A stretch of DNA of 64,000 nt, from sequence record NC_106514.1. The stretch is one strand, 5' to 3'. This stretch comes from Escherichia phage vB_EcoS_ESCO40. The position numbers were made by a program, and so were the translations under genes. The notes under the pieces are model-generated. The model had not been told where the DNA came from. It did no database searches and saw nothing but the letters and a program-made list of their open reading frames with translations. Positions 3,119 through 64,000 of this stretch are shown here, one piece after another; positions within the stretch are counted from its first letter, which is position 1, and every line of letters begins with the position of its first letter.

Positions 3119-5908
3119 GTGTTTTCAATCCTACAAGGTCATGCAGGATTTCATCGCGATTTAGCCACAGGCAATTGGCGAGAAGTTAAAGCAGAAGATT
3201 ATCTTTTTGCTAAAAGATTTTCCTCAAAGCATCCTGAAGGTAAACCAGCTTCAATGCCCTTCAAGTTTGATGTAATTGACGAAGTTGATCCTCAAACCCT
3301 AGTAGAAATGCTCCCTCTTATGAGACGTTTAACGTCTGACCCTCATATCGTTGCGGTACGAGGTCGATGTCTTGCACCTAAAAATAATGTGCGGCGTAAG
3401 AAGGGCAACTTTAATGTATCTAATCCAAGTCATATAATCGCAATGGATGTGGATGGTATTGTAGATACAGGAGGTTGTAACAAGTTTGATCTTGTTGGCG
3501 TGGCTCGACATATTATTAGGATGTTAAATAGTATTAGTGAGGATATGTTTCCTCTTGATGCAGGGTTTATCGCTCATGCATCGTCTTCGGCTGGACTAAA
3601 ACCAGGTATCCGAATGCACTTAATACTAGAATCTAATGTTAAAGTTACACAGGGTCAGATCAAGTTCTTATTTACATCTATCAACGAAAGTAGTAGACAA
3701 AAGTATGGCTTTGATATTGCCGACTTAGCTTATTACTCTTCCGTACAGCTCCACTATTTCGCAGATCCTTTATTTATTGATGGTATAGTCGATCCGTTTA
3801 AAGCGGAGGGTGCTTCACGTCTGGTATTTGTTAAAGGCTCAAAAGTAAATTTACCTAATAATCTAGTTGACTATGAAACAACTAGAGGAGAGTTTAAAGA
3901 GGAATTCTACTCTTTACTCGATCAAATTAAAGGTAAAAAAGCTGCCTCTGATAAAGTAGAGGAAACTATCAGTGAGCTAGAAGAGGCTGATGATGGGGTA
4001 TACTTACGTATTATTCCAAAGCTATATCACCGAGCGTTAGAGGATGGGGTAGATTTTGGTTGGCTAGAAAAAGAAATCCGCCCAGCTTTATCAGAATATA
4101 TTGCAACTAAAGATAATAGCCGTAATATTCAGGATTATTTCAATAACGGACGGAAACAGGCATTAAAAGCCTTTGTGAATAACTCTAAGCGTGAGATCCC
4201 TGAAGTATTAAAAGGTATCCCCCTTAAAAAGCTAGAAACTAATTCACTAGAGACTGACAACTTCTTGAAATTAAATACTGTACCACCAGAAGGCTATATG
4301 ACTTTTGTAAAAGCAAGTCTAGGCACAGGTAAAACCACGGCGGTTGTGCGTTGGTTAGATTCAGGGGTTATTAAAGGTAATTTCTTAGCAATTACCAATA
4401 CTAGAGCACTGGTATCTTCAAATGCTAAGAAATTTAGTGCAGGACAATATGATAAGTCTGTAGATATGCTTAATTTTAAGCGTGGTGCTATTGACCGTAT
4501 GTCCACAACTATTCACTCTTTGCATAAATTCAAGAGTTTTATTGGTCAAATTGACGCAATCTTTATCGATGAATGTGATGCAGTAATGAATGACCTATTA
4601 TTCGCTCCGGTTGTTAAGCAACGTCGCGAGTGTATTCAGGTTCTTCGTGATATTCTTGCAACTGCAAAAATAATTATATTATCTGATGGGGATATTAGTG
4701 CAGAAACAATTGAAGCATATGGTTCTTTGATTGAGTTCGATAAACCAGTTGCATTTTACAATCACCACCGTAAAATGCTGTCAAAAGCTCATGCTTATGA
4801 GTTCCCTGATGAATCCAGTATTTGGGTTGCACTTCAGACTTCTCTAGAGATGGGTGAGAAATCTATTCTAGTATCTGATTGTGGCCCGGATGAGCTGAAT
4901 GAGAAAGGTATGGCACTGCGTCGTAATACGGGTGCGTTAGTTAAGGAAATCCATTCAAACTCTACCTCAGATGTGGATATTCGACGTATTCTGGATTACA
5001 CAACTAATGAACTAATTGATCAACAAATTGATTGCTTATTATGTAGTCCATCCGTAACGAGTGGTGTTGACTTTAACTATTTTGATAACGTATTTGTTAT
5101 TACTAGAACTAGTAATCAAGCGCCAAACATGCGTTTTCAAGCAATCAGGCGCGACCGTGGTGCTCAGAATATCTATTATTTTATTGATAAATCCACTAGT
5201 GGGTTCTCTGCTGGTTCTGAACAATATAATATTGATGAAGGTTGGCTGGAGTTAGCACAGCAGTTATATGCGCGTCGCAGGGAGCTAGAATCTAGGAACT
5301 ATACTAGTACTTTACGTTATTACTTGCTTGATCAAGGTGCAACTATTGATATTTTCAGCGAAAGCTGGGGAACTATTGAAGGTGCTGGTAAAGAGTACAC
5401 AGAAGAGCGAATCAAAGCTATTCTGCATTCAACTCCAGATTATTGTGCTCCACGTCATGCGGATGCGTATGAAGCTAAACTACTTCTTGTTCGCTATTAT
5501 CATCTTGAGTCTATTAAAGATGTAACAGTTGAGCATGTTGAACAATATATCAAAGATAAGCCGAATGATCGAGCTGCATTCTTCCATAAGATGCACGAGA
5601 TGTTCTGGGAAGATATTAAGAAGTGTTCAAATGTGACCATTAAACCATTCATAGAAGCTCTGAAAGGTAAGAAGAAGGACTTCTTCCTTAAAACAGGTCA
5701 GAGTGCTAACCCAAAATATGCTAGAATGTATCTTGGTATGATGGGTATTGGTAAAGATATGAACACGGAGAATATCGTAGACTGGTACAGAACCTATTGT
5801 AAAATCGAGTGTATGCCAATTCCTTATAAGTTCATGACTGACGAGGAAAAACATATGCACGATGAAGCAATGTCAGAGCTAGGTGCTAGAAATGACAGTG
5901 AAGAATAA
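3119..5908 (+). CDS. SF2 helicase-domain protein, putative replication initiator / origin-binding-like
   Basis: Walker A GTGKTT and DExD-like IFIDECD in central region; ORF open from 3041 (TTG); GTG at 3119 follows AGGAG by 7 nt; start uncertain. Confidence 0.6.
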   Translation: MFSILQGHAGFHRDLATGNWREVKAEDYLFAKRFSSKHPEGKPASMPFKFDVIDEVDPQTLVEMLPLMRRLTSDPHIVAVRGRCLAPKNNVRRKKGNFNVSNPSHIIAMDVDGIVDTGGCNKFDLVGVARHIIRMLNSISEDMFPLDAGFIAHASSSAGLKPGIRMHLILESNVKVTQGQIKFLFTSINESSRQKYGFDIADLAYYSSVQLHYFADPLFIDGIVDPFKAEGASRLVFVKGSKVNLPNNLVDYETTRGEFKEEFYSLLDQIKGKKAASDKVEETISELEEADDGVYLRIIPKLYHRALEDGVDFGWLEKEIRPALSEYIATKDNSRNIQDYFNNGRKQALKAFVNNSKREIPEVLKGIPLKKLETNSLETDNFLKLNTVPPEGYMTFVKASLGTGKTTAVVRWLDSGVIKGNFLAITNTRALVSSNAKKFSAGQYDKSVDMLNFKRGAIDRMSTTIHSLHKFKSFIGQIDAIFIDECDAVMNDLLFAPVVKQRRECIQVLRDILATAKIIILSDGDISAETIEAYGSLIEFDKPVAFYNHHRKMLSKAHAYEFPDESSIWVALQTSLEMGEKSILVSDCGPDELNEKGMALRRNTGALVKEIHSNSTSDVDIRRILDYTTNELIDQQIDCLLCSPSVTSGVDFNYFDNVFVITRTSNQAPNMRFQAIRRDRGAQNIYYFIDKSTSGFSAGSEQYNIDEGWLELAQQLYARRRELESRNYTSTLRYYLLDQGATIDIFSESWGTIEGAGKEYTEERIKAILHSTPDYCAPRHADAYEAKLLLVRYYHLESIKDVTVEHVEQYIKDKPNDRAAFFHKMHEMFWEDIKKCSNVTIKPFIEALKGKKKDFFLKTGQSANPKYARMYLGMMGIGKDMNTENIVDWYRTYCKIECMPIPYKFMTDEEKHMHDEAMSELGARNDSEE

Positions 5909-6125
5909 AAAATGGGAAACAAGGAAGTTTCCAGTAAAAGAACGTAAGGTTCCTGTTTATGATACTTCGGAAAAGCTATGTAGGGTGGTACCACACAGAT
6001 TAGCTGGTATCCCTAACATATCCGAGTGGTTACTTAAACAACGGAGGACTAGCGTATCCCTCCGCATAGGGTTTGAGTTAGATAAAGTATATGCTGAACT
6101 TTCTTCTTTGCTCAAAGAATCATAA
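5883..6125 (+). CDS. hypothetical protein (80 aa)
   Basis: ORF overlapping the end of the upstream gene; no motif recognised. Confidence 0.35.
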   Translation: MLEMTVKNKKWETRKFPVKERKVPVYDTSEKLCRVVPHRLAGIPNISEWLLKQRRTSVSLRIGFELDKVYAELSSLLKES

Positions 6126-54434: not shown

Positions 54435-54554
54435 TTAGCACTAAAATGACTTTTGCCAAATTTCATAAGATTACACATGGAGGTGTGCTCACTGCCTCCG
54501 GCGAAAATACTTAGTCTCCTAACCGCCACCCCCGTTACTATTACTCTGCTAACT

Positions 54555-58422: not shown

Positions 58423-58674
58423 TTACGCTACAGCTTCAAATTTTTCGTTCCGCTGGACAACCTTTACAACGTCGCCGGATTTAACCCGAACGTTATAAAT
58501 AGTTTTCCCGTTGTTACTCCGTTCCGTTTCAGCATATACCGCATCAATCACATCGAACGGCATAAGCGCCGCGCCTTTGATGCGTTCGGCCTTTCCAGTT
58601 GCCTCATCCGTTTTAGTAACGAAAGGAATAAAAACGGATTGACCAATTTTAGGCGCGGTAATAACGTTTTTCAT
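58423..58674 (-). CDS. hypothetical protein (83 aa)
   Basis: ORF in the leftward pre-early operon. Confidence 0.45.
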   Translation of the reverse strand: MKNVITAPKIGQSVFIPFVTKTDEATGKAERIKGAALMPFDVIDAVYAETERSNNGKTIYNVRVKSGDVVKVVQRNEKFEAVA

Positions 58675-58901
58675 AGTATAAACTCCTAGTTATTTGGGGA
58701 TTGTTCCGCATTACCTGCTAGAAAGTAGCAGGTAATAAGAAAAAATCCGCTCGCCAATATAATCAATTTAAAGAACTCCACTCAGGCCGCTATATCCCAG
58801 TTAGGGGGCGGGACACATTATGGTAAGTGCCGACCGTCAAATTGTATCAAGTTATCGCTCTTATCGAACTGGGTACATCTTAAAGCCTATCGGCTAGGGT
58901 G

Positions 58902-59105
58902 TCAAACAATTTTTTGCAGTTTTTTATGATTTTCTTTCAGGTCAATCATAATATTTCGCCAGATCATTTCCAGACCTTGCTGGCGGCCTTTCTTGTACTG
59001 CGTGAATCTATATCTTACGGATTGTTGAGCTATTGTCAACAATTTTTTAGTATTGCCATCCAATTTTTTGGCTGGTTTACCAGTTATCAAAAGCGTTTGT
59101 TTCAT
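58902..59105 (-). CDS. hypothetical basic protein (67 aa)
   Basis: Lys/Arg-rich ORF; AAGGA RBS 9 nt upstream on the minus strand. Confidence 0.45.
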   Translation of the reverse strand: MKQTLLITGKPAKKLDGNTKKLLTIAQQSVRYRFTQYKKGRQQGLEMIWRNIMIDLKENHKKLQKIV

Positions 59106-59725
59106 ATCTGCGATTCCTTATATAATTGATAAGTTTACCGCCGATAGACTTTAAGATATACCCAATTTTTAAAGAGCGCGGCGGTAAACTTCCCGCCGTT
59201 GTAGTCCGTTGCCGTCCTACGAGATAAATAATAGCAAATACCAAAAATGGCGCAACCTTATTTTTGTAAAGAAACGTAAAGAAAGCAACACGTCCGGCGT
59301 TCACCTAAGTTTAAAGGAAACGGGCGCGCGAATACCACAAAACACAGCAGATAGGCAAGTAATTTTTTCATTTATATTTGCCTTGCCCTACTTGACAAAA
59401 CTTAAAAAGCTCAAGGCGACGATAAACGGCTTATCCCTTTATGATGGCATACCTGAAAATTTTACCGCTTTCTAGGACGTTTTAGGCGGCTTATTTTCGA
59501 CTTAACAAATATTTAACAAAAGCAAAATTGAAAAATAGTTTGAAAAGATATTGACTTTTTAAAATCAAGATTAAACGAGTTATTTTATAAAATTAATTAA
59601 TTGACTTTTATTTGACGTTGTGTATTAGAAAGATAGCAGACTAATAATTGCTAGGATGATAATCATGCTGGTGGATTGTAACAGCCTGAACTATTAGCAG
59701 ACTATTAATCACGGAAAATCTCATT

Positions 59726-59754
59726 AGCCAACTAACTATTTCCTGAGTTATAAT
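59726..59754 (+). promoter_or_regulatory. promoter-like element with T5-type downstream leader (P10)
   Basis: TATAAT followed by ATAAGCATAAATTAATGAGAT matching the conserved leader of the early promoters; weak -35 (AGCCAA). Confidence 0.45.
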
Positions 59755-59805
59755 ATAAGCATAAATTAATGAGATAATAATAATTATAAGAAATCGTAAC
59801 CAATA

Positions 59806-59897
59806 GAAATAATAACTATAAAAATAATAACTATAAAAATAATAACTATAAAAATAATAACTATAAAAATAATAACTATAAAAATAATAACTATAAG
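59806..59897. repeat. 15-bp tandem repeat, about 6 copies
   Basis: AATAACTATAAAAAT repeated head to tail. Confidence 0.9.
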
Positions 59898-59934
59898 AAA
59901 CTATCGGCCTAAGTGAGAACCACTATCATTTAAG

Positions 59935-59943
59935 TTATCCACA
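59935..59943 (+). promoter_or_regulatory. DnaA box (perfect 9-mer)
   Basis: TTATCCACA. Confidence 0.5.
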
Positions 59944-59994
59944 AGTTTATTAACAGCACTTTTTGACTTGACACGATAGGCGGCGATATAAGGG

Positions 59995-60044
59995 CTTATC
60001 CACAGACTTATCCACAGGTTATCCTACTGTATAAATATACAGGG
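59995..60044 (+). promoter_or_regulatory. composite element A: two tandem DnaA boxes plus a LexA-box-like palindrome
   Basis: TTATCCACA at 59996-60004 and 60008-60016, then TACTGTATAAATATACAGGG (CTGT-N8-ACAG) at 60025-60044. Confidence 0.55.
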
Positions 60045-60308
60045 TAGAAAGGTAGTGTTAACAACTGCAATCAATTTTAAGCGGCCTAAATCGCTTTCTA
60101 ACGAGCTAAATGCAGTGGGGTAATATTAAAGTAAAGCCTTCACCCGCCGCCCTGGTGGCTTCGCCGTGTTTTGCTCTTTACTATACCGCTGCGCGGTTAG
60201 CATAAAACTAGGCGTTAGGCAAGGAAAATAAAAAGGTAAAATAATATTTGCCCCTAGAAAGAAAATACCCTTATCATTCACTCACCGATTAACGAGGGAG
60301 TCCAACAA

Positions 60309-61286
60309 ATGAGGCTGTATAAACCAGATAATGCCACCGTCTTAAAAGGTGCGCTGCGCAACCTGCTGGACGGTAGCAGAACAACCAGCATTAAGCACTT
60401 TGTTAACAAGGCCGAAGATATTCACCAAAATTTTTTTGATGATTTCGATGCCTATGATATGAGTAGTTTTTTGCAATTGTATAAGCAAGGGGCAACGCTT
60501 GTTTTGTATAATCGAGATAATCACCTGCTTACTAGTAGGGGGCCGGATACTGATTTTATAATTGTAAAAGGTAGCACAGTAAAAGCCTATGACACTGGGG
60601 CGGGCTTAGAAGTTTTTTCAATAGAAAACTATGAAGCCAACCCCAATGATCTTTATGACGTTGAAAACTTTCTTGATTCATTTTGGCGTTATTTATCAGT
60701 TGGCTGGAATCGGTCAATTGGTGACGGTTATCGTCTGGCGGCTGTAATGGCTTTTGATGATGATGGCAATTTTTTGCTACCGTCGGAAATATACCCTTAC
60801 GTATATGATGGGGATATAGAAAGCGCGGGCTTTTCTTTCTGGAAGGAGGAAGATCAGCCTATTGACAATATAGAAAAACATGCGGTAAATTCTAACGCTC
60901 AAACCATTGAAAACAAAGGAAAAAATACCATGACCAAGATCGCTAATATCGTTGCCGCTAATAAGTCTGCCGTTGTAAATGCTGCAAAATTGGAAGCGGG
61001 TAAAATTGCACTGACTCAAATCACGAAAGTAGCGGCTAAAAAAGCGCCGTTTATGATTAAAGGCTATATTGATACGCCTATCGGTCGGGTAGTGATTGCT
61101 AACCTGCTTAGCGTGGTGGTTGACCAGTATGCCCCTAGCAACCAGAAAGCGAAAGCGGTAGCGGGTGCAGCTATGGAAGCGGCTATGTTAGAAATGGTGC
61201 AAAGTTTTAACATTGCTGAAATGATTGACGAAATGGTGAAAGGTATTGATATTTCTACTTTTACCGTTAACACCGAAAACGAGTAA
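60309..61286 (+). CDS. hypothetical protein (325 aa)
   Basis: GAGGGAG RBS 9 nt upstream; no motif recognised; first gene of the rightward cassette. Confidence 0.6.
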   Translation: MRLYKPDNATVLKGALRNLLDGSRTTSIKHFVNKAEDIHQNFFDDFDAYDMSSFLQLYKQGATLVLYNRDNHLLTSRGPDTDFIIVKGSTVKAYDTGAGLEVFSIENYEANPNDLYDVENFLDSFWRYLSVGWNRSIGDGYRLAAVMAFDDDGNFLLPSEIYPYVYDGDIESAGFSFWKEEDQPIDNIEKHAVNSNAQTIENKGKNTMTKIANIVAANKSAVVNAAKLEAGKIALTQITKVAAKKAPFMIKGYIDTPIGRVVIANLLSVVVDQYAPSNQKAKAVAGAAMEAAMLEMVQSFNIAEMIDEMVKGIDISTFTVNTENE

Positions 61287-61313
61287 TAGTTAACCTAGTG
61301 TAAAGTTTTGTAA

Positions 61314-61340
61314 AGGTCGCCATAATCGGCGGCCTTTTTT
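61314..61340 (+). terminator. intrinsic terminator
   Basis: GGTCGCC/GGCGGCC hairpin (one G-U pair) followed by TTTTTT. Confidence 0.6.
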
Positions 61341-61348
61341 GTTATAAT
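61340..61348 (+). promoter_or_regulatory. extended -10 promoter element
   Basis: TGTTATAAT (TGn-TATAAT) directly after the terminator T-tract. Confidence 0.4.
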
Positions 61349-61405
61349 GCCTTTACACCAAAACGGTGGATTGAAAATTTTCCCAAAAAATTTTGGAGGC
61401 TTAAA

Positions 61406-61636
61406 ATGGTTGCTTACTCTTCTTCTGACGCTCTTTTCACTGGAAAAGGCTGGGTATCAAATCGCTGGATCATTCAAGAAATGGTGCAAGAATATGGCAT
61501 TGCTAAAACTTACACTACCATTCAGGCGCTTTATGATAATGATCAAATCGATCAGCAAACGGCGGGCTTTTTGCTGGATACCCTAAAAGCGGAACATTGT
61601 ACTAAAAAACAAGCCGCAAAAATTATTTTAATGTAA
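61406..61636 (+). CDS. hypothetical protein (76 aa)
   Basis: GGAGG RBS 7 nt before ATG. Confidence 0.55.
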   Translation: MVAYSSSDALFTGKGWVSNRWIIQEMVQEYGIAKTYTTIQALYDNDQIDQQTAGFLLDTLKAEHCTKKQAAKIILM

Positions 61637-61682
61637 TTAATAACGGGGCGTTATTTTCGCCCCGCTAACTAGGAGAATGAAA

Positions 61683-61832
61683 ATGGTTATTTTTCGAGCT
61701 ATTCTGGCGGGTATCTTGGGCGCTATTTTATCACTTTTTGCCATAGCTTTCGGCGTTCACGCGGTTATTGTTGGCGCGGGTATCGCTGTATTTTCTTATC
61801 TGCTGGGCTGCATGACTAGTAAAGGAGAATAA
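61683..61832 (+). CDS. small membrane protein (49 aa)
   Basis: AGGAG 7 nt upstream; almost entirely hydrophobic (two predicted helices); not in the ORF track because it is under 60 aa. Confidence 0.45.
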   Translation: MVIFRAILAGILGAILSLFAIAFGVHAVIVGAGIAVFSYLLGCMTSKGE

Positions 61833-61834
61833 AA

Positions 61835-62047
61835 ATGATTCGTAACGTTTCCCTTGCTCGTTCAAAGGGTTTTAGGCTGGTGGACGTTAACACGTTCGAG
61901 CGGGAAGACTGTAAAATCGAATATGTAGCACGGAATAAAAACGCCTTCCGTGTTACAGAAAAGAAATTCGATAAGCGCGGCAACGTGATCGCTGAAACGG
62001 TTAAATATTTTGCCACCTTTTACGCTGCGTTTCGTGGGGTACTATGA
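61835..62047 (+). CDS. hypothetical protein (70 aa)
   Basis: AAGGAGAA RBS; Lys/Arg-rich. Confidence 0.55.
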   Translation: MIRNVSLARSKGFRLVDVNTFEREDCKIEYVARNKNAFRVTEKKFDKRGNVIAETVKYFATFYAAFRGVL

Positions 62048-62178
62048 AAAACGTTATTATTATTATTATCCTTGCAATGGTTGGCGGTTTTACCGCCACC
62101 TTGTTTAAGAATGACCCCCTTTTACTGGGGGTTTTTATGCTTTTATCAGGCTATCTGATCGGGAGGATATGCAAATGA
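62044..62178 (+). CDS. small membrane protein (44 aa)
   Basis: Start overlaps upstream stop (ATGA); hydrophobic VIIIIILAMVGGFTATLF and LLLGVFMLLSGYLIG; under 60 aa. Confidence 0.4.
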   Translation: MKNVIIIIILAMVGGFTATLFKNDPLLLGVFMLLSGYLIGRICK

Positions 62179-62519
62179 TCATTTACGAGGGCAATCGTTT
62201 TGTTACTAATTGCCGCCCAGCATTATTAGCAAACTATTTAAACCAGCTTTCGCCAGCTTATAAGGGCGTTATTAATATTTATGAAGGCAAGGCGCACTAT
62301 AAAATCAATGCGGTCGTTGCCCGTGAACTAGCGTTTCAATTTTTGACCTTTGCATCTTGCGACGTTCAGGTTATGGGTGAGGCATTAATCGCAGAAAATG
62401 AAGATGATTTTATTAATATTTTCCGTAAGGTGTGCACCGAGCGCCTGATAATGAAAGGCGCATATATTCAATCCACGGCTGATAGTATTGAAACAGCGTT
62501 TCGAAAGGTGGCGCAATGA
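62169..62519 (+). CDS. hypothetical protein (116 aa)
   Basis: GGGAGG RBS upstream; no motif recognised. Confidence 0.55.
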   Translation: MQMIIYEGNRFVTNCRPALLANYLNQLSPAYKGVINIYEGKAHYKINAVVARELAFQFLTFASCDVQVMGEALIAENEDDFINIFRKVCTERLIMKGAYIQSTADSIETAFRKVAQ

Positions 62520-62611
62520 GATTATATATTTTCGCGGGCAATGTTGAGGCTGCAAATGATTCCGCTGGTGGCGATAACGTTCGCCACTACTGGCAAAAAT
62601 ATATTTACTAG
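62516..62611 (+). CDS. hypothetical small protein (31 aa)
   Basis: Start overlaps upstream stop (ATGA), fills an otherwise empty 100-bp gap. Confidence 0.3.
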   Translation: MRLYIFAGNVEAANDSAGGDNVRHYWQKYIY

Positions 62612-62619
62612 GGGTTACT

Positions 62620-62814
62620 ATGAGCAATAAAATTATTGTGACCAAAACCACCACAACGGTTGACGTTTTTTATGTGCCCGATACGCCGGAAAACCGGCAA
62701 GCGGTCGAACGTGGTGAATATGATAGCGTAATTTATGACGCTGATGGTTATTATCAGCATTTGGTCGATTCCTATGGGGAAGAGGAGAAGATCACGCATC
62801 AATTACCAGACTGA
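62620..62814 (+). CDS. small acidic protein (64 aa)
   Basis: About 14 Asp/Glu against about 5 Lys/Arg; last gene before a terminator. Confidence 0.55.
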   Translation: MSNKIIVTKTTTTVDVFYVPDTPENRQAVERGEYDSVIYDADGYYQHLVDSYGEEEKITHQLPD

Positions 62815-62820
62815 CAACAA

Positions 62821-62844
62821 ACGGGGAGCAGATCCCCGTTTTTC
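62821..62844 (+). terminator. intrinsic terminator
   Basis: ACGGGGA-GCAGA-TCCCCGT hairpin followed by TTTTCAC. Confidence 0.7.
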
Positions 62845-62954
62845 ACACCTGCAACCAGATAACCCCTTGTTTTAGTATCCCCGCCAAAATTAAACGCGTT
62901 AGAATGCGATCTAGGACGTTTTAAGCCTATATTAGAATTATTCACTGCATAGGA

Positions 62955-63064
62955 ATACTGTATAAATATACAGTAGAATAACCTGGGGATAAGTCTGTGG
63001 ATAACGCTTCAAAATGGCTAGGATTCTGTCAAGGCAAATCGTGCTGTTGATAAGTCTGTGGATA
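62955..63064 (-). promoter_or_regulatory. composite element B: LexA-box-like palindrome plus two DnaA boxes, inverted relative to element A
   Basis: TACTGTATAAATATACAGTA at 62955-62974 (one mismatch to the SOS-box consensus as recalled); TGTGGATAA at 62995-63003 and 63056-63064. Confidence 0.55.
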
Positions 63065-63093
63065 ACCTAAATAACAGTGTTTCTCACTTCCAT

Positions 63094-63290
63094 TCTTAAA
63101 TGAGAATCATTATCATTCGCATTCCACTATCTAACCGATAATCATTTCCTTTCTTAAATGAGAATCATTTCACTTTTTGAATAGTTCTCATTCTCTTTCT
63201 TAAATGAGAATCAATCTCATTTCATTTTCTAAATGCGAATTATTATCATTCTCATTCCGCTTTTTAAATGATAATGATTCTCATTATCAT
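63094..63290. repeat. array of about 5 AT-rich direct repeats (TCTTAAATGAGAATCAT-type)
   Basis: Copies at about 63094, 63153, 63198, 63227 and 63262; the last contains GATAATGATTCTCATTATC, 17 of 19 matches to the Fur-box consensus as recalled. Confidence 0.7.
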
Positions 63291-63328
63291 TCGCATTCAG
63301 GCGAGCAGGGCAATTGCCCTGCGCTTTT

Positions 63329-63929
63329 GTGCAAATCCGACAATTGCTCCAAGGGTTACGTGCTGGCGTGTATGTGCAAATCCGACAATTTTTGGTAGTG
63401 TGCAAATCCGACCCGAAAAATTTTTATAGTGTGCGAATCCGACAATGAATTTTCCTAAAAACTCCAGCAATCACGAACTGCGTTCGAATCCTGTGGGATA
63501 TGTGCAAATCCGACACGGTTTTTCTAGGATTAAGATGTGCGAATCCGATGAAGTTTTTGTGAGTTCGATTGGAAGGTGTGTGATTGTATGGGTTTGTGGA
63601 GAAGGTGAGAGAGCGAGAGAAATTTGGTGGGCTAGAAGGATGTGGTCGCAGGATTGGTGTGGAGCACCTGGTTTGCGGGGATTTTGGGGAAGAGTTGAGA
63701 TAATTTGGGGAAATTTGAGATAGGTGCAGAAAAAGTAAAATTTTATTAGCAAAATGGGGCAAAATAGCTTGACAAGTGAAAATTCTTGTGGCTCTAAAAA
63801 CTCAGGCAATCATGGGCCTTCGGCCCGAAATAATGCTGCTATTTTCAGGAGAGTAAGAGTTCCTAAAAACTTAGGCGTTTGTGCAAATCCGACCATAAAT
63901 TTCTAGAAACACAATGTGCGAATCCGACA
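63329..63929 (+). repeat. eight dispersed direct copies of a 14-bp motif GTGC(A/G)AATCCGA(C/T)
   Basis: Copies at 63329, 63374, 63400, 63431, 63502, 63537, 63881 and 63916, all in the same orientation, each followed within 12 nt by a T-run. Confidence 0.85.
63575..63730 (+). other. G+T-rich strand-asymmetric tract
   Basis: About 150 nt almost devoid of C on the plus strand (GGTGTGTGATTGTATGGGTTTGTGGAGAAGGTGAGAGAGCGAGAG...). Confidence 0.7.
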
Positions 63930-63970
63930 GTAATTTCTGGAAATGTGTTTTCAAAAAATGTCTTCTAGAA

Positions 63971-64000
63971 ATAACCGCCCTCCCTATAACCGCCCTCCCT
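63971..64000 (+). repeat. 15-bp direct repeat, 2 copies, at window edge
   Basis: ATAACCGCCCTCCCT twice in tandem. Confidence 0.8.

Follow-up and report, generated by a model that had tools for sequence, protein, structure and literature searches.

Why the entry of phage T5 DNA stops after about 8% of the genome has been a question since the 1960s. The terminal repeat of T5 has a mirrored element, arranged as IRC-spacer-IRD in Repeat Region 2 and as IRD'-spacer-IRC' in Repeat Region 3, which is the presumed injection stop signal, and each repeat has eight DnaA or DnaA-like boxes that are paired 3 bp apart (Davison, bioRxiv 10.1101/866236). The same preprint proposes, as a hypothesis, that DnaA at the membrane retains the entering DNA until the action of A1/A2, and it mentions neither LexA nor SOS. 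The present analysis concerns positions 59106-60308 (the interval) of a 64,000-nucleotide stretch (the window) of Escherichia phage vB_EcoS_ESCO40 (NC_106514.1). An initial annotation, made from the letters alone, described the interval as a divergent control region with tandem repeats, DnaA boxes, and promoter-like elements and suggested that host DnaA is recruited there as an origin, a transcription roadblock, or a DNA-transfer checkpoint. This observation and the checkpoint reading are already in print because the Davison preprint and the BF23 genome paper (PMC10644984), which repeats the description, contain both. The element is thus one already described for T5 and BF23, and the interval is an ordinary member of its kind.

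Alignment places the interval in a T5-type terminal repeat

Database comparison returned 527-541 phage records that match the interval, almost all of them T5-like and from Salmonella, Escherichia, and Klebsiella, and 366 records cover at least 80% of its length. The best matches are ~90% identical, and nucleotide identity to T5 and BF23 is 82-93%. Alignment to BF23 and T5 puts position 1 of their terminal repeat at window position 54487, and alignment combined with family matches gives the order dmp, A1, A2, hdi, untranslated region, and gene 011, as in T5 and BF23. Genes for receptor-binding and receptor-blocking proteins sit just upstream of the repeat, as they do at the T5 right end, and the window therefore holds the right terminal repeat. 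The interval is bounded by the homologues of hdi (58902-59105, minus strand) and gene 011 (60309-61286, plus strand) and lies between the leftward operon and the rightward pre-early cassette. These alignments identify it as the central untranslated region of a T5-type terminal repeat in its right-hand copy, homologous to T5 Repeat Regions 1 and 2, and identify the phage as a T5-like member of the Demerecviridae.

The T5 and BF23 repeat regions (Wang et al. annotation in AY587007; Davison 2020 preprint) occupy the same position between hdi and gene 011, have the same 131/132-bp mirrored partner in the injection-stop region, and likewise have four boxes in each arm, paired at a distance of 3 bp. 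The window differs from T5 in that the hegG homing-endonuclease insert is missing, which leaves Repeat Regions 1 and 2 fused into one contiguous block, and in that a 15-bp array, absent from T5, is present in 7-8 copies. Its arm in Region 2 (the R2 arm) has three perfect DnaA boxes plus TTATTAACA, whereas the T5 arm is degraded in its IRC part, and the start codon of T5.009 is lost in the window. The conservation profile of the relatives splits the interval into segments 59106-59600, 59601-59910, 59911-60044, and 60045-60308. The identity with the T5 region, the anatomy, the pattern of site conservation, and the dispensability of the arm in T5 form the established part of the account given here.

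Two mirrored arms with a common array of sites

The three perfect DnaA boxes reported by the initial annotation at 59935, 59996, and 60008 are present, and its claim that TTATCCACA occurs five times in the terminal region, above chance, agrees with an enrichment check by shuffling. All five copies, three on the plus strand at those positions and two on the minus strand at 62996 and 63057, lie in the terminal repeat. The expectation for 64 kb is 0.6-0.7, and no shuffled sequence reached five (0/100; maximum 4 in 200). A fourth near-consensus box, TTATTAACA at 59947, had been overlooked, as had an inverted repeat of 132 nt that is 78% complementary between 59911-60042 and 62958-63089. The arm in Region 3 is called the R3 arm, and the features of the two arms are as follows.

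59911..60044, plus strand: R2 arm (IRC-spacer-IRD), the most conserved part of the interval, compared over 31 distinct R2 copies
59935-59943, plus strand: R2 box1, TTATCCACA
59947-59955, plus strand: R2 box2, TTATTAACA
59968-59973, plus strand: invariant TTGACA of the R2 arm
59996-60004, plus strand: R2 box3
60008-60016, plus strand: R2 box4
60019-60024, plus strand: TTATCC
60025-60044, plus strand: LexA-operator-like palindrome TACTGTATAAATATACAGGG
62956..63089, minus strand: R3 arm (IRD'-spacer-IRC'), mirror partner of the R2 arm within the injection-stop region, corresponding to the T5 iss annotation
62956-62975: R3 palindrome TACTGTATAAATATACAGTA
62984-62992, minus strand: R3 box, TTATCCCCA
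62996-63004, minus strand: R3 box
63027-63032: TGTCAA of the R3 arm
63045-63053, minus strand: R3 box, TTATCAACA
63057-63065, minus strand: R3 box

The four boxes of each arm form two pairs, with a 3-bp gap within the pair and 61 bp start-to-start between the pairs. The arms were compared over 62 distinct copies, 31 of each type, taken from 40 loci around A2 homologues together with the window, T5, and BF23. Both arm types have the same module order, which begins with AGTGAGAAnCACT, box1-3 nt-box2, GCAC, the invariant TTGACA, and ~21 variable nt and continues with a second half composed of box3-GAC-box4, GGTTATCC, and the 20-bp palindrome. R2 box1, box3, and box4 fit TTWTNCACA in 27-29 of the 31 distinct copies, and box3 alternates among TTTTACACA, TTATCCACA, and TTTTGCACA. 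Departures from TTATCCACA over all boxes of the 62 copies fall mainly at positions 3, 5, and 6, of which 3 and 5 are degenerate in TTWTNCACA. The substitution pattern at positions 3 and 5 is therefore the one expected if DnaA binding is selected. The box pairs also persist in relatives with an A1 protein that is only 31-42% identical. This pattern and this persistence lend good support to the suggested recruitment of host DnaA, whereas the use of the region as an origin is disfavored, as discussed below. The TTGACA of the arm was considered as a -35 element and rejected because inspection of the sequence found no -10 at a usable distance in either arm.

Arms of this length and complementarity, flanking a cassette that varies in gene content and length among relatives, could form a DNA cruciform or loop or an RNA panhandle, or they could mediate inversion, excision, or exchange of the cassette. 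The comparison of arms speaks against these functions. Arm-to-arm identity is 0.743 within a genome and 0.741 between genomes, and because arms that share a genome are no more alike than arms that do not, neither a pairing constraint nor gene conversion is apparent. Orthologous arms are 0.83 and 0.905 identical, and between the two arm types the common modules are 0.8-0.98 identical and the spacer is 0.40 identical. The relative order and orientation of the two arm types are constant in every locus examined, and a common transcript of both arms is unlikely because a terminator precedes the R3 arm. A structure-forming or recombinogenic inverted repeat is thus very unlikely. By this comparison the "inverted repeat" is two diverged copies of one protein-site array and not a pairing structure or a recombination substrate under gene conversion.

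A LexA-operator-like palindrome at the arm ends

The inner end of each arm is a palindrome with a CTGT-N8-ACAG core (60027 and 62958) that the initial annotation had missed and that corresponds to T5 palindrome D. It was scored with a LexA position weight matrix built from 18 E. coli SOS boxes listed in PMC3009722, and the genuine sites were scored leave-one-out. The R2 site scores 21.9 bits and the R3 site scores 26.3 bits, compared to a range of 6.6-24.5 bits for the 18 genuine E. coli sites, all of which are outscored by the R3 palindrome. The next best site in the 64 kb has 13.9 bits. Like the E. coli SOS boxes, the element is a 20-bp palindrome, TACTGTATA(A/T)(A/T)TATACAG(TA/GG), with the same core, and its score equals or exceeds those of the sbmC, umuD, recN, and istR2 boxes. 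Unlike them, it is not demonstrably placed at a promoter in every copy, lies immediately next to DnaA boxes, and belongs to a virulent phage. The core is kept in 29 of the 31 R3 copies and 26 of the 31 R2 copies. Palindrome positions 2-9 and 12-18 are almost invariant in the 62 copies, and variation falls on the two middle bases and, in the R2 copies alone, on the final two.

Six of the 7 sequences tested have 2-3 sites of at least 18 bits per pre-early region, and an 8-kb stretch of PG07 has one; the expectation per locus is 0.003-0.03. Sites above this threshold are found one to three times in the pre-early regions of Serratia, Erwinia, Klebsiella, Proteus, and Vibrio phages with A1 proteins down to 31% identical, mostly within ~10-30 bp of DnaA box pairs. 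The composite DnaA-LexA motif is confined in IMG/VR to T5-like contigs, and it has no chromosomal counterpart among 185,579 bacterial genomes because the single match there is a 3-kb metagenome-bin contig. That contig (RZZU01000077.1, locus L046), binned as a "Clostridia bacterium" metagenome-assembled genome, carries a T5-type composite motif, and several records with Listeria or Campylobacter phage names also match T5-like sequence. The contig and these records are probably contamination or mislabeling.

The palindrome scores and their conservation raise the possibility that each arm is a composite landing pad for DnaA and LexA, that palindrome D is a near-consensus LexA operator across the Demerecviridae sampled, and that LexA occupancy is part of injection-stop or pre-early control. 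This combined proposal is tentative and may well be wrong. The LexA-type site is a modest new lead, one worth a bench test. No paper in the accessible full-text literature links LexA to T5-like phages; paywalled T5 papers were outside this search, and priority is uncertain.

Two protein leads were considered and set aside. The phage DNA-binding protein A2, as a LexA-like owner of the palindrome, has no Pfam or PDB sequence match, and its AlphaFold model (predicted local distance difference test score of 83) is all-helical with no significant fold match and none to LexA; these results do not support A2 as a LexA-like protein. JSS1_004, which binds the recA and lexA promoters, is irrelevant as a lead because it is a kinase/shutoff protein, which we take to be T7 gp0.7-like, and not a T5 pre-early protein.

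Other motifs occur beside the palindromes. The motif CTAGGACGTTTTA(A/G)G flanks their outer side at 59474-59492, ~60076-60095 (inverted), and 62911-62927 and is the counterpart of T5 IRB/IRB'. In distant phages of Vibrio and Proteus (L043, L092-L094), a related AATCGCTTAGAA...GCGTTTTAGAG block adjoins LexA-like sites with no DnaA boxes next to them.

The arms as proposed landing pads during DNA entry

The functional core of the interval would be the arm of 132 bp at 59911-60044, where sites for host proteins stand in a fixed array of two DnaA-box pairs, TTGACA, and the terminal LexA-type operator. The mirrored array is also present at 62956-63089, and therefore two arms bracket the rightward pre-early cassette. 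The arms would act as protein-binding DNA and not as a pairing structure. On first-step-transfer (FST) entry they would most likely be loaded with host DnaA, and probably with LexA, and the nucleoprotein complexes would contribute to pausing or anchoring the DNA as it enters, along the lines of Davison's model. The main site would be the stop-proximal arm, with the R2 arm as an auxiliary, laboratory-dispensable one. The remaining features of the interval would be pre-early promoters and leaders plus a slippage-prone AT-rich array, with no replication origin among them.

This landing-pad reading fits the site conservation, the family-wide co-occurrence of the two motifs, and a minor FST fragment or band reported to end near the R2 arm in old experiments (Davison, bioRxiv 10.1101/866236). 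In our estimate it is probable, if only just, that host DnaA, and probably LexA, use the arm as a landing pad on DNA that has just been injected, with the arm as an auxiliary to the boundary arm. The actual occupancy by DnaA or LexA, and any effect on DNA transfer, are inferred.

The R3 arm lies ~8.5 kb into the repeat and matches the T5 iss annotation (Repeat Region 3). The R2 arm has all modules of that signal: the DnaA boxes, TTGACA, and palindrome D. It differs from iss in having neither the major nick nor the DRC, DRD, and DRE repeats, in being dispensable in T5, and in lying ~5.4 kb from the start of the repeat and not at the first-step/second-step boundary (about 8% of the genome).

Dispensability was established with the T5 mutant "DLDR", which is deleted "from hegG to 017" and is viable with small plaques (2026 preprint). 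The published primers map the deletion to AY587007 5393-9081, and the window equivalent is roughly 59580-62800. The deletion takes out the entire R2 arm together with the rightward promoter-like site and the cassette, and it leaves Region 1 and the R3 arm in place. The part of the interval with every highlighted motif is thus dispensable in T5, and this viability is a strong argument against an origin as well as against the R2 arm being essential for transfer.

Several points weigh against the landing-pad reading. The R2 arm is not required in T5 because DLDR grows without it. The boxes of the stop-proximal R3 arm mostly have one mismatch (TTATCAACA, TTATTAACA, TTATCCCCA). The model gives no account of how cytoplasmic proteins on DNA that has already entered stop pressure-driven entry. 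T5 plates on recA strains, and LexA cleavage therefore cannot be needed for the second transfer step. Both the BF23 genome paper (PMC10644984) and a 2026 PNAS paper state that functional tests are lacking.

Possible transcription control around the arm

The main rival to a role in DNA entry is a transcriptional roadblock or operator. DnaA and/or LexA on the arm would regulate or block transcription, and the arms would insulate the rightward cassette, whose genes are toxic. The promoter features that bear on this explanation are as follows.

59725.., plus strand: rightward promoter-like site with TAGCCA at 59725-59730, TATAAT at 59749-59754, and the ATAAATTA leader, kept in most variants
60061..60034, minus strand: promoter-like TTAACA-16-TATATT (10/12), overlapping the R2 palindrome with the -10 inside it
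60045..60308, plus strand: leader/promoter region of the rightward cassette (gene 011 homologue 60309-61286), from the promoter scan and the T5 promoter annotated upstream of T5.011
60216-60245: promoter-like site (promoter scan)
60248-60277: promoter-like site (promoter scan)

One variant is a roadblock between the rightward promoter-like site and gene 011. The TATAAT noted by the initial annotation at 59749 is there, and paired with TAGCCA, 18 nt upstream, it has a sigma-70 score of 10/12. The block TAGCCAACTAACTAT...TATAAT...ATAAATTA is conserved directly upstream of the R2 arm in most relatives, whether hegG is present or not. That a DnaA/DnaA-box complex can block RNA polymerase is established (asnC terminator) and is counted in favor of this variant, but the known gene 011 promoter lies ~200 bp to the right of the arm. 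The other variant is repression by LexA of the leftward promoter at 60061..60034. In most of the 31 distinct R2 copies this promoter-like site and the LexA-type box overlap, but its TTAACA is kept in most and not all of them; T5 and several relatives lack it. The R3 copies have no convincing promoter over the palindrome, and the R3 arm is downstream of the cassette terminator. In our estimate, transcription control by the arm is plausible but fairly unlikely.

The intrinsic terminator ACGGGGA-GCAGA-TCCCCGTTTTT near 62821-62845 closes the rightward cassette just before the R3 arm and was not listed by the terminator scan.

The variable segment and the origin reading

The AT-rich repeats beside the arm lie in the variable segment of the interval, the features of which are as follows.

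59601..59910: variable segment, the place of the HNH gene hegG in T5, where coverage by relatives falls to 0.2-0.7
59667-59674, plus strand: Chi octamer GCTGGTGG, found in 9 of 23 sequence variants
59776-59896: 15-bp tandem array (Tandem Repeats Finder: period 15, 7.9 copies, 88% matches)

T5 positions 5419-5941 have no counterpart in the window. The 15-bp tandem repeat of the initial annotation is real, and six in-register copies cover 59788-59907. Over the 23 sequence variants the copy number ranges from 0 to 7, with the maximum in this window and no copies in T5. Judged from these variants, the array behaves as would a repeat that is prone to slippage and derives from the sequence adjoining the promoter-like site.

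An oriC-type origin would use the 15-mer array as the element that unwinds and the DnaA boxes to recruit host DnaA, and the array is indeed very AT-rich and 40 bp from the cluster of high-affinity boxes. E. coli oriC, datA, and DARS also have close TTATCCACA-type boxes in the same orientation. Unlike these systems, the R2 cluster has no conserved unwinding element, is present twice per repeat in mirrored copies, lies on DNA that is unreplicated at that stage, and is not essential. T5 origins were mapped near the genome center and the replication genes are not on first-step DNA, and the mid-genome location is the argument made in print against an origin role (Davison, bioRxiv 10.1101/866236). 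The origin claim of the initial annotation is disfavored because the array has 0-7 copies, the T5 origins are mid-genome, and T5 with the whole arm deleted is viable. We consider an origin here to be improbable in the extreme.

The initial annotation also listed several TTGAC(A/T) hexamers, of which five were counted on the plus strand of the interval compared to ~1.5 expected from their density, and a Chi octamer, which is present but begins at 59667 and not at 59666. The window has five Chi octamers compared to 0.83 expected (9555, 10880, 59667, 61876, and 62564), all on the plus strand and three of them in the terminal repeat. The terminal-repeat loci of relatives have 62 Chi sites in the same orientation and 9 in the opposite one, counts that are not independent. 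By the standard rule, Chi in this orientation is read by RecBCD moving leftward, as after entry at the right end of the genome or at a break situated to the right of first-step DNA.

The left border and the conserved untranslated block

The left part of the interval and its border have the following features.

58902..59105, minus strand: hdi (T5.008) homologue, first gene of the leftward pre-early operon, with PHROG 4718 and Pfam DUF7416 matches; its position matches T5.008 at 4715-4918
59039..59012 and 58905..58877: TTGACA-16/17-TAAGAT sites (promoter scan); homologues of promoters P-H22 and P-D/E20 overlap the hdi homologue
59106..59600: conserved untranslated block, homologous to T5 Repeat Region 1, with identity to 32 relatives of 0.65-0.92
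59398-59393 and 59376-59371, minus strand: promoter-like site TTGTCA/TATAAA, conserved in the alignment
59255-59250 and 59233-59228, minus strand: promoter-like site TTGCGC/TATTAT, conserved in the alignment

The description as a divergent control region is broadly right, except that the two characterized leftward promoters, P-H22 and P-D/E20, are inside or beside hdi and left of the interval. The two minus-strand promoter-like sites within 59106-59600 have invariant hexamers and variable spacers in the alignment of relatives. The block has 0.097-0.18 substitutions per site per sequence compared to 0.125-0.135 in the neighboring genes, and its left half (0.097) is more conserved than those genes. 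Inside it, a hairpin at 59180-59198 has the sequence CGGCGG-GAAGTTTA-CCGCCG. In two relatives (loci L018 and L033) the central 12 nt of the hairpin are the exact reverse complement (GGGAAGTTTACC to GGTAAACTTCCC), a change that looks like a hairpin-mediated inversion.

Coding capacity was judged from how strongly substitutions in 32 distinct relatives follow a period of three. Third-position periodicity is strong in A2, hdi, and gene 011 (p<1e-30 in the flanking genes), whereas no codon periodicity was found in 59351-59600, in the inverted-repeat arm, or in 60043-60308, and 59106-59350 has only a weak codon-phase skew (226/291/195, p=4e-5). Insertions and deletions are numerous through the whole interval. 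By these substitution patterns the interval is untranslated. The small open reading frames (ORFs) at 59252-59371 (minus strand) and 59209-59475 (plus strand) and the T5.009 homologue were rejected as genes because the skew is at most weak and far below that of the flanking genes and because insertions and deletions are frequent. Codon-phase skew is absent from the ORF at 59209-59475, and the start codons of a 39-aa ORF and of T5.009 are not conserved in the alignment. The T5.009 homologue (59102-59209, minus strand) has lost its start here (ATG to ACG) and its frame as well; the ATG is kept in most relatives, and T5.009 is retained in a minimal T5 mutant. An Rfam scan of 58600-64000 found nothing near threshold.

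Other repeats in the terminal region

A perfect 20-nt inverted repeat, TACTATGAAAAACGTTATTA, is located at 58659-58678 and 62040-62059 and spans the ribosome site to codon 5 of two divergent ORFs, 58423-58674 (minus strand) and 62044-62178 (plus strand), both of which begin with MKNVI. The injection-stop region at 63084-64000 is rich in further repeats. TGTGC(A/G)AATCCGAC occurs at least 7 times between 63328 and 63936, TCTTAAATGAGAATCATT-type units occur 5 times, and the end of the window falls inside two copies of ATAACCGCCCTCCCT (63971-64000).

Significance for T5-like phages

The interval itself adds nothing beyond the T5 and BF23 publications. The comparison sharpens the question of the first-step stop, in that the arms appear as protein-site arrays, the DnaA sites have the substitution pattern of real sites, and LexA becomes a concrete and cheaply testable candidate. 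The existing T5 mutant without the R2 arm leaves one arm to mutate. If the LexA proposal is true, two-step DNA transfer or the pre-early program of these phages would be tied to the SOS state of the host.

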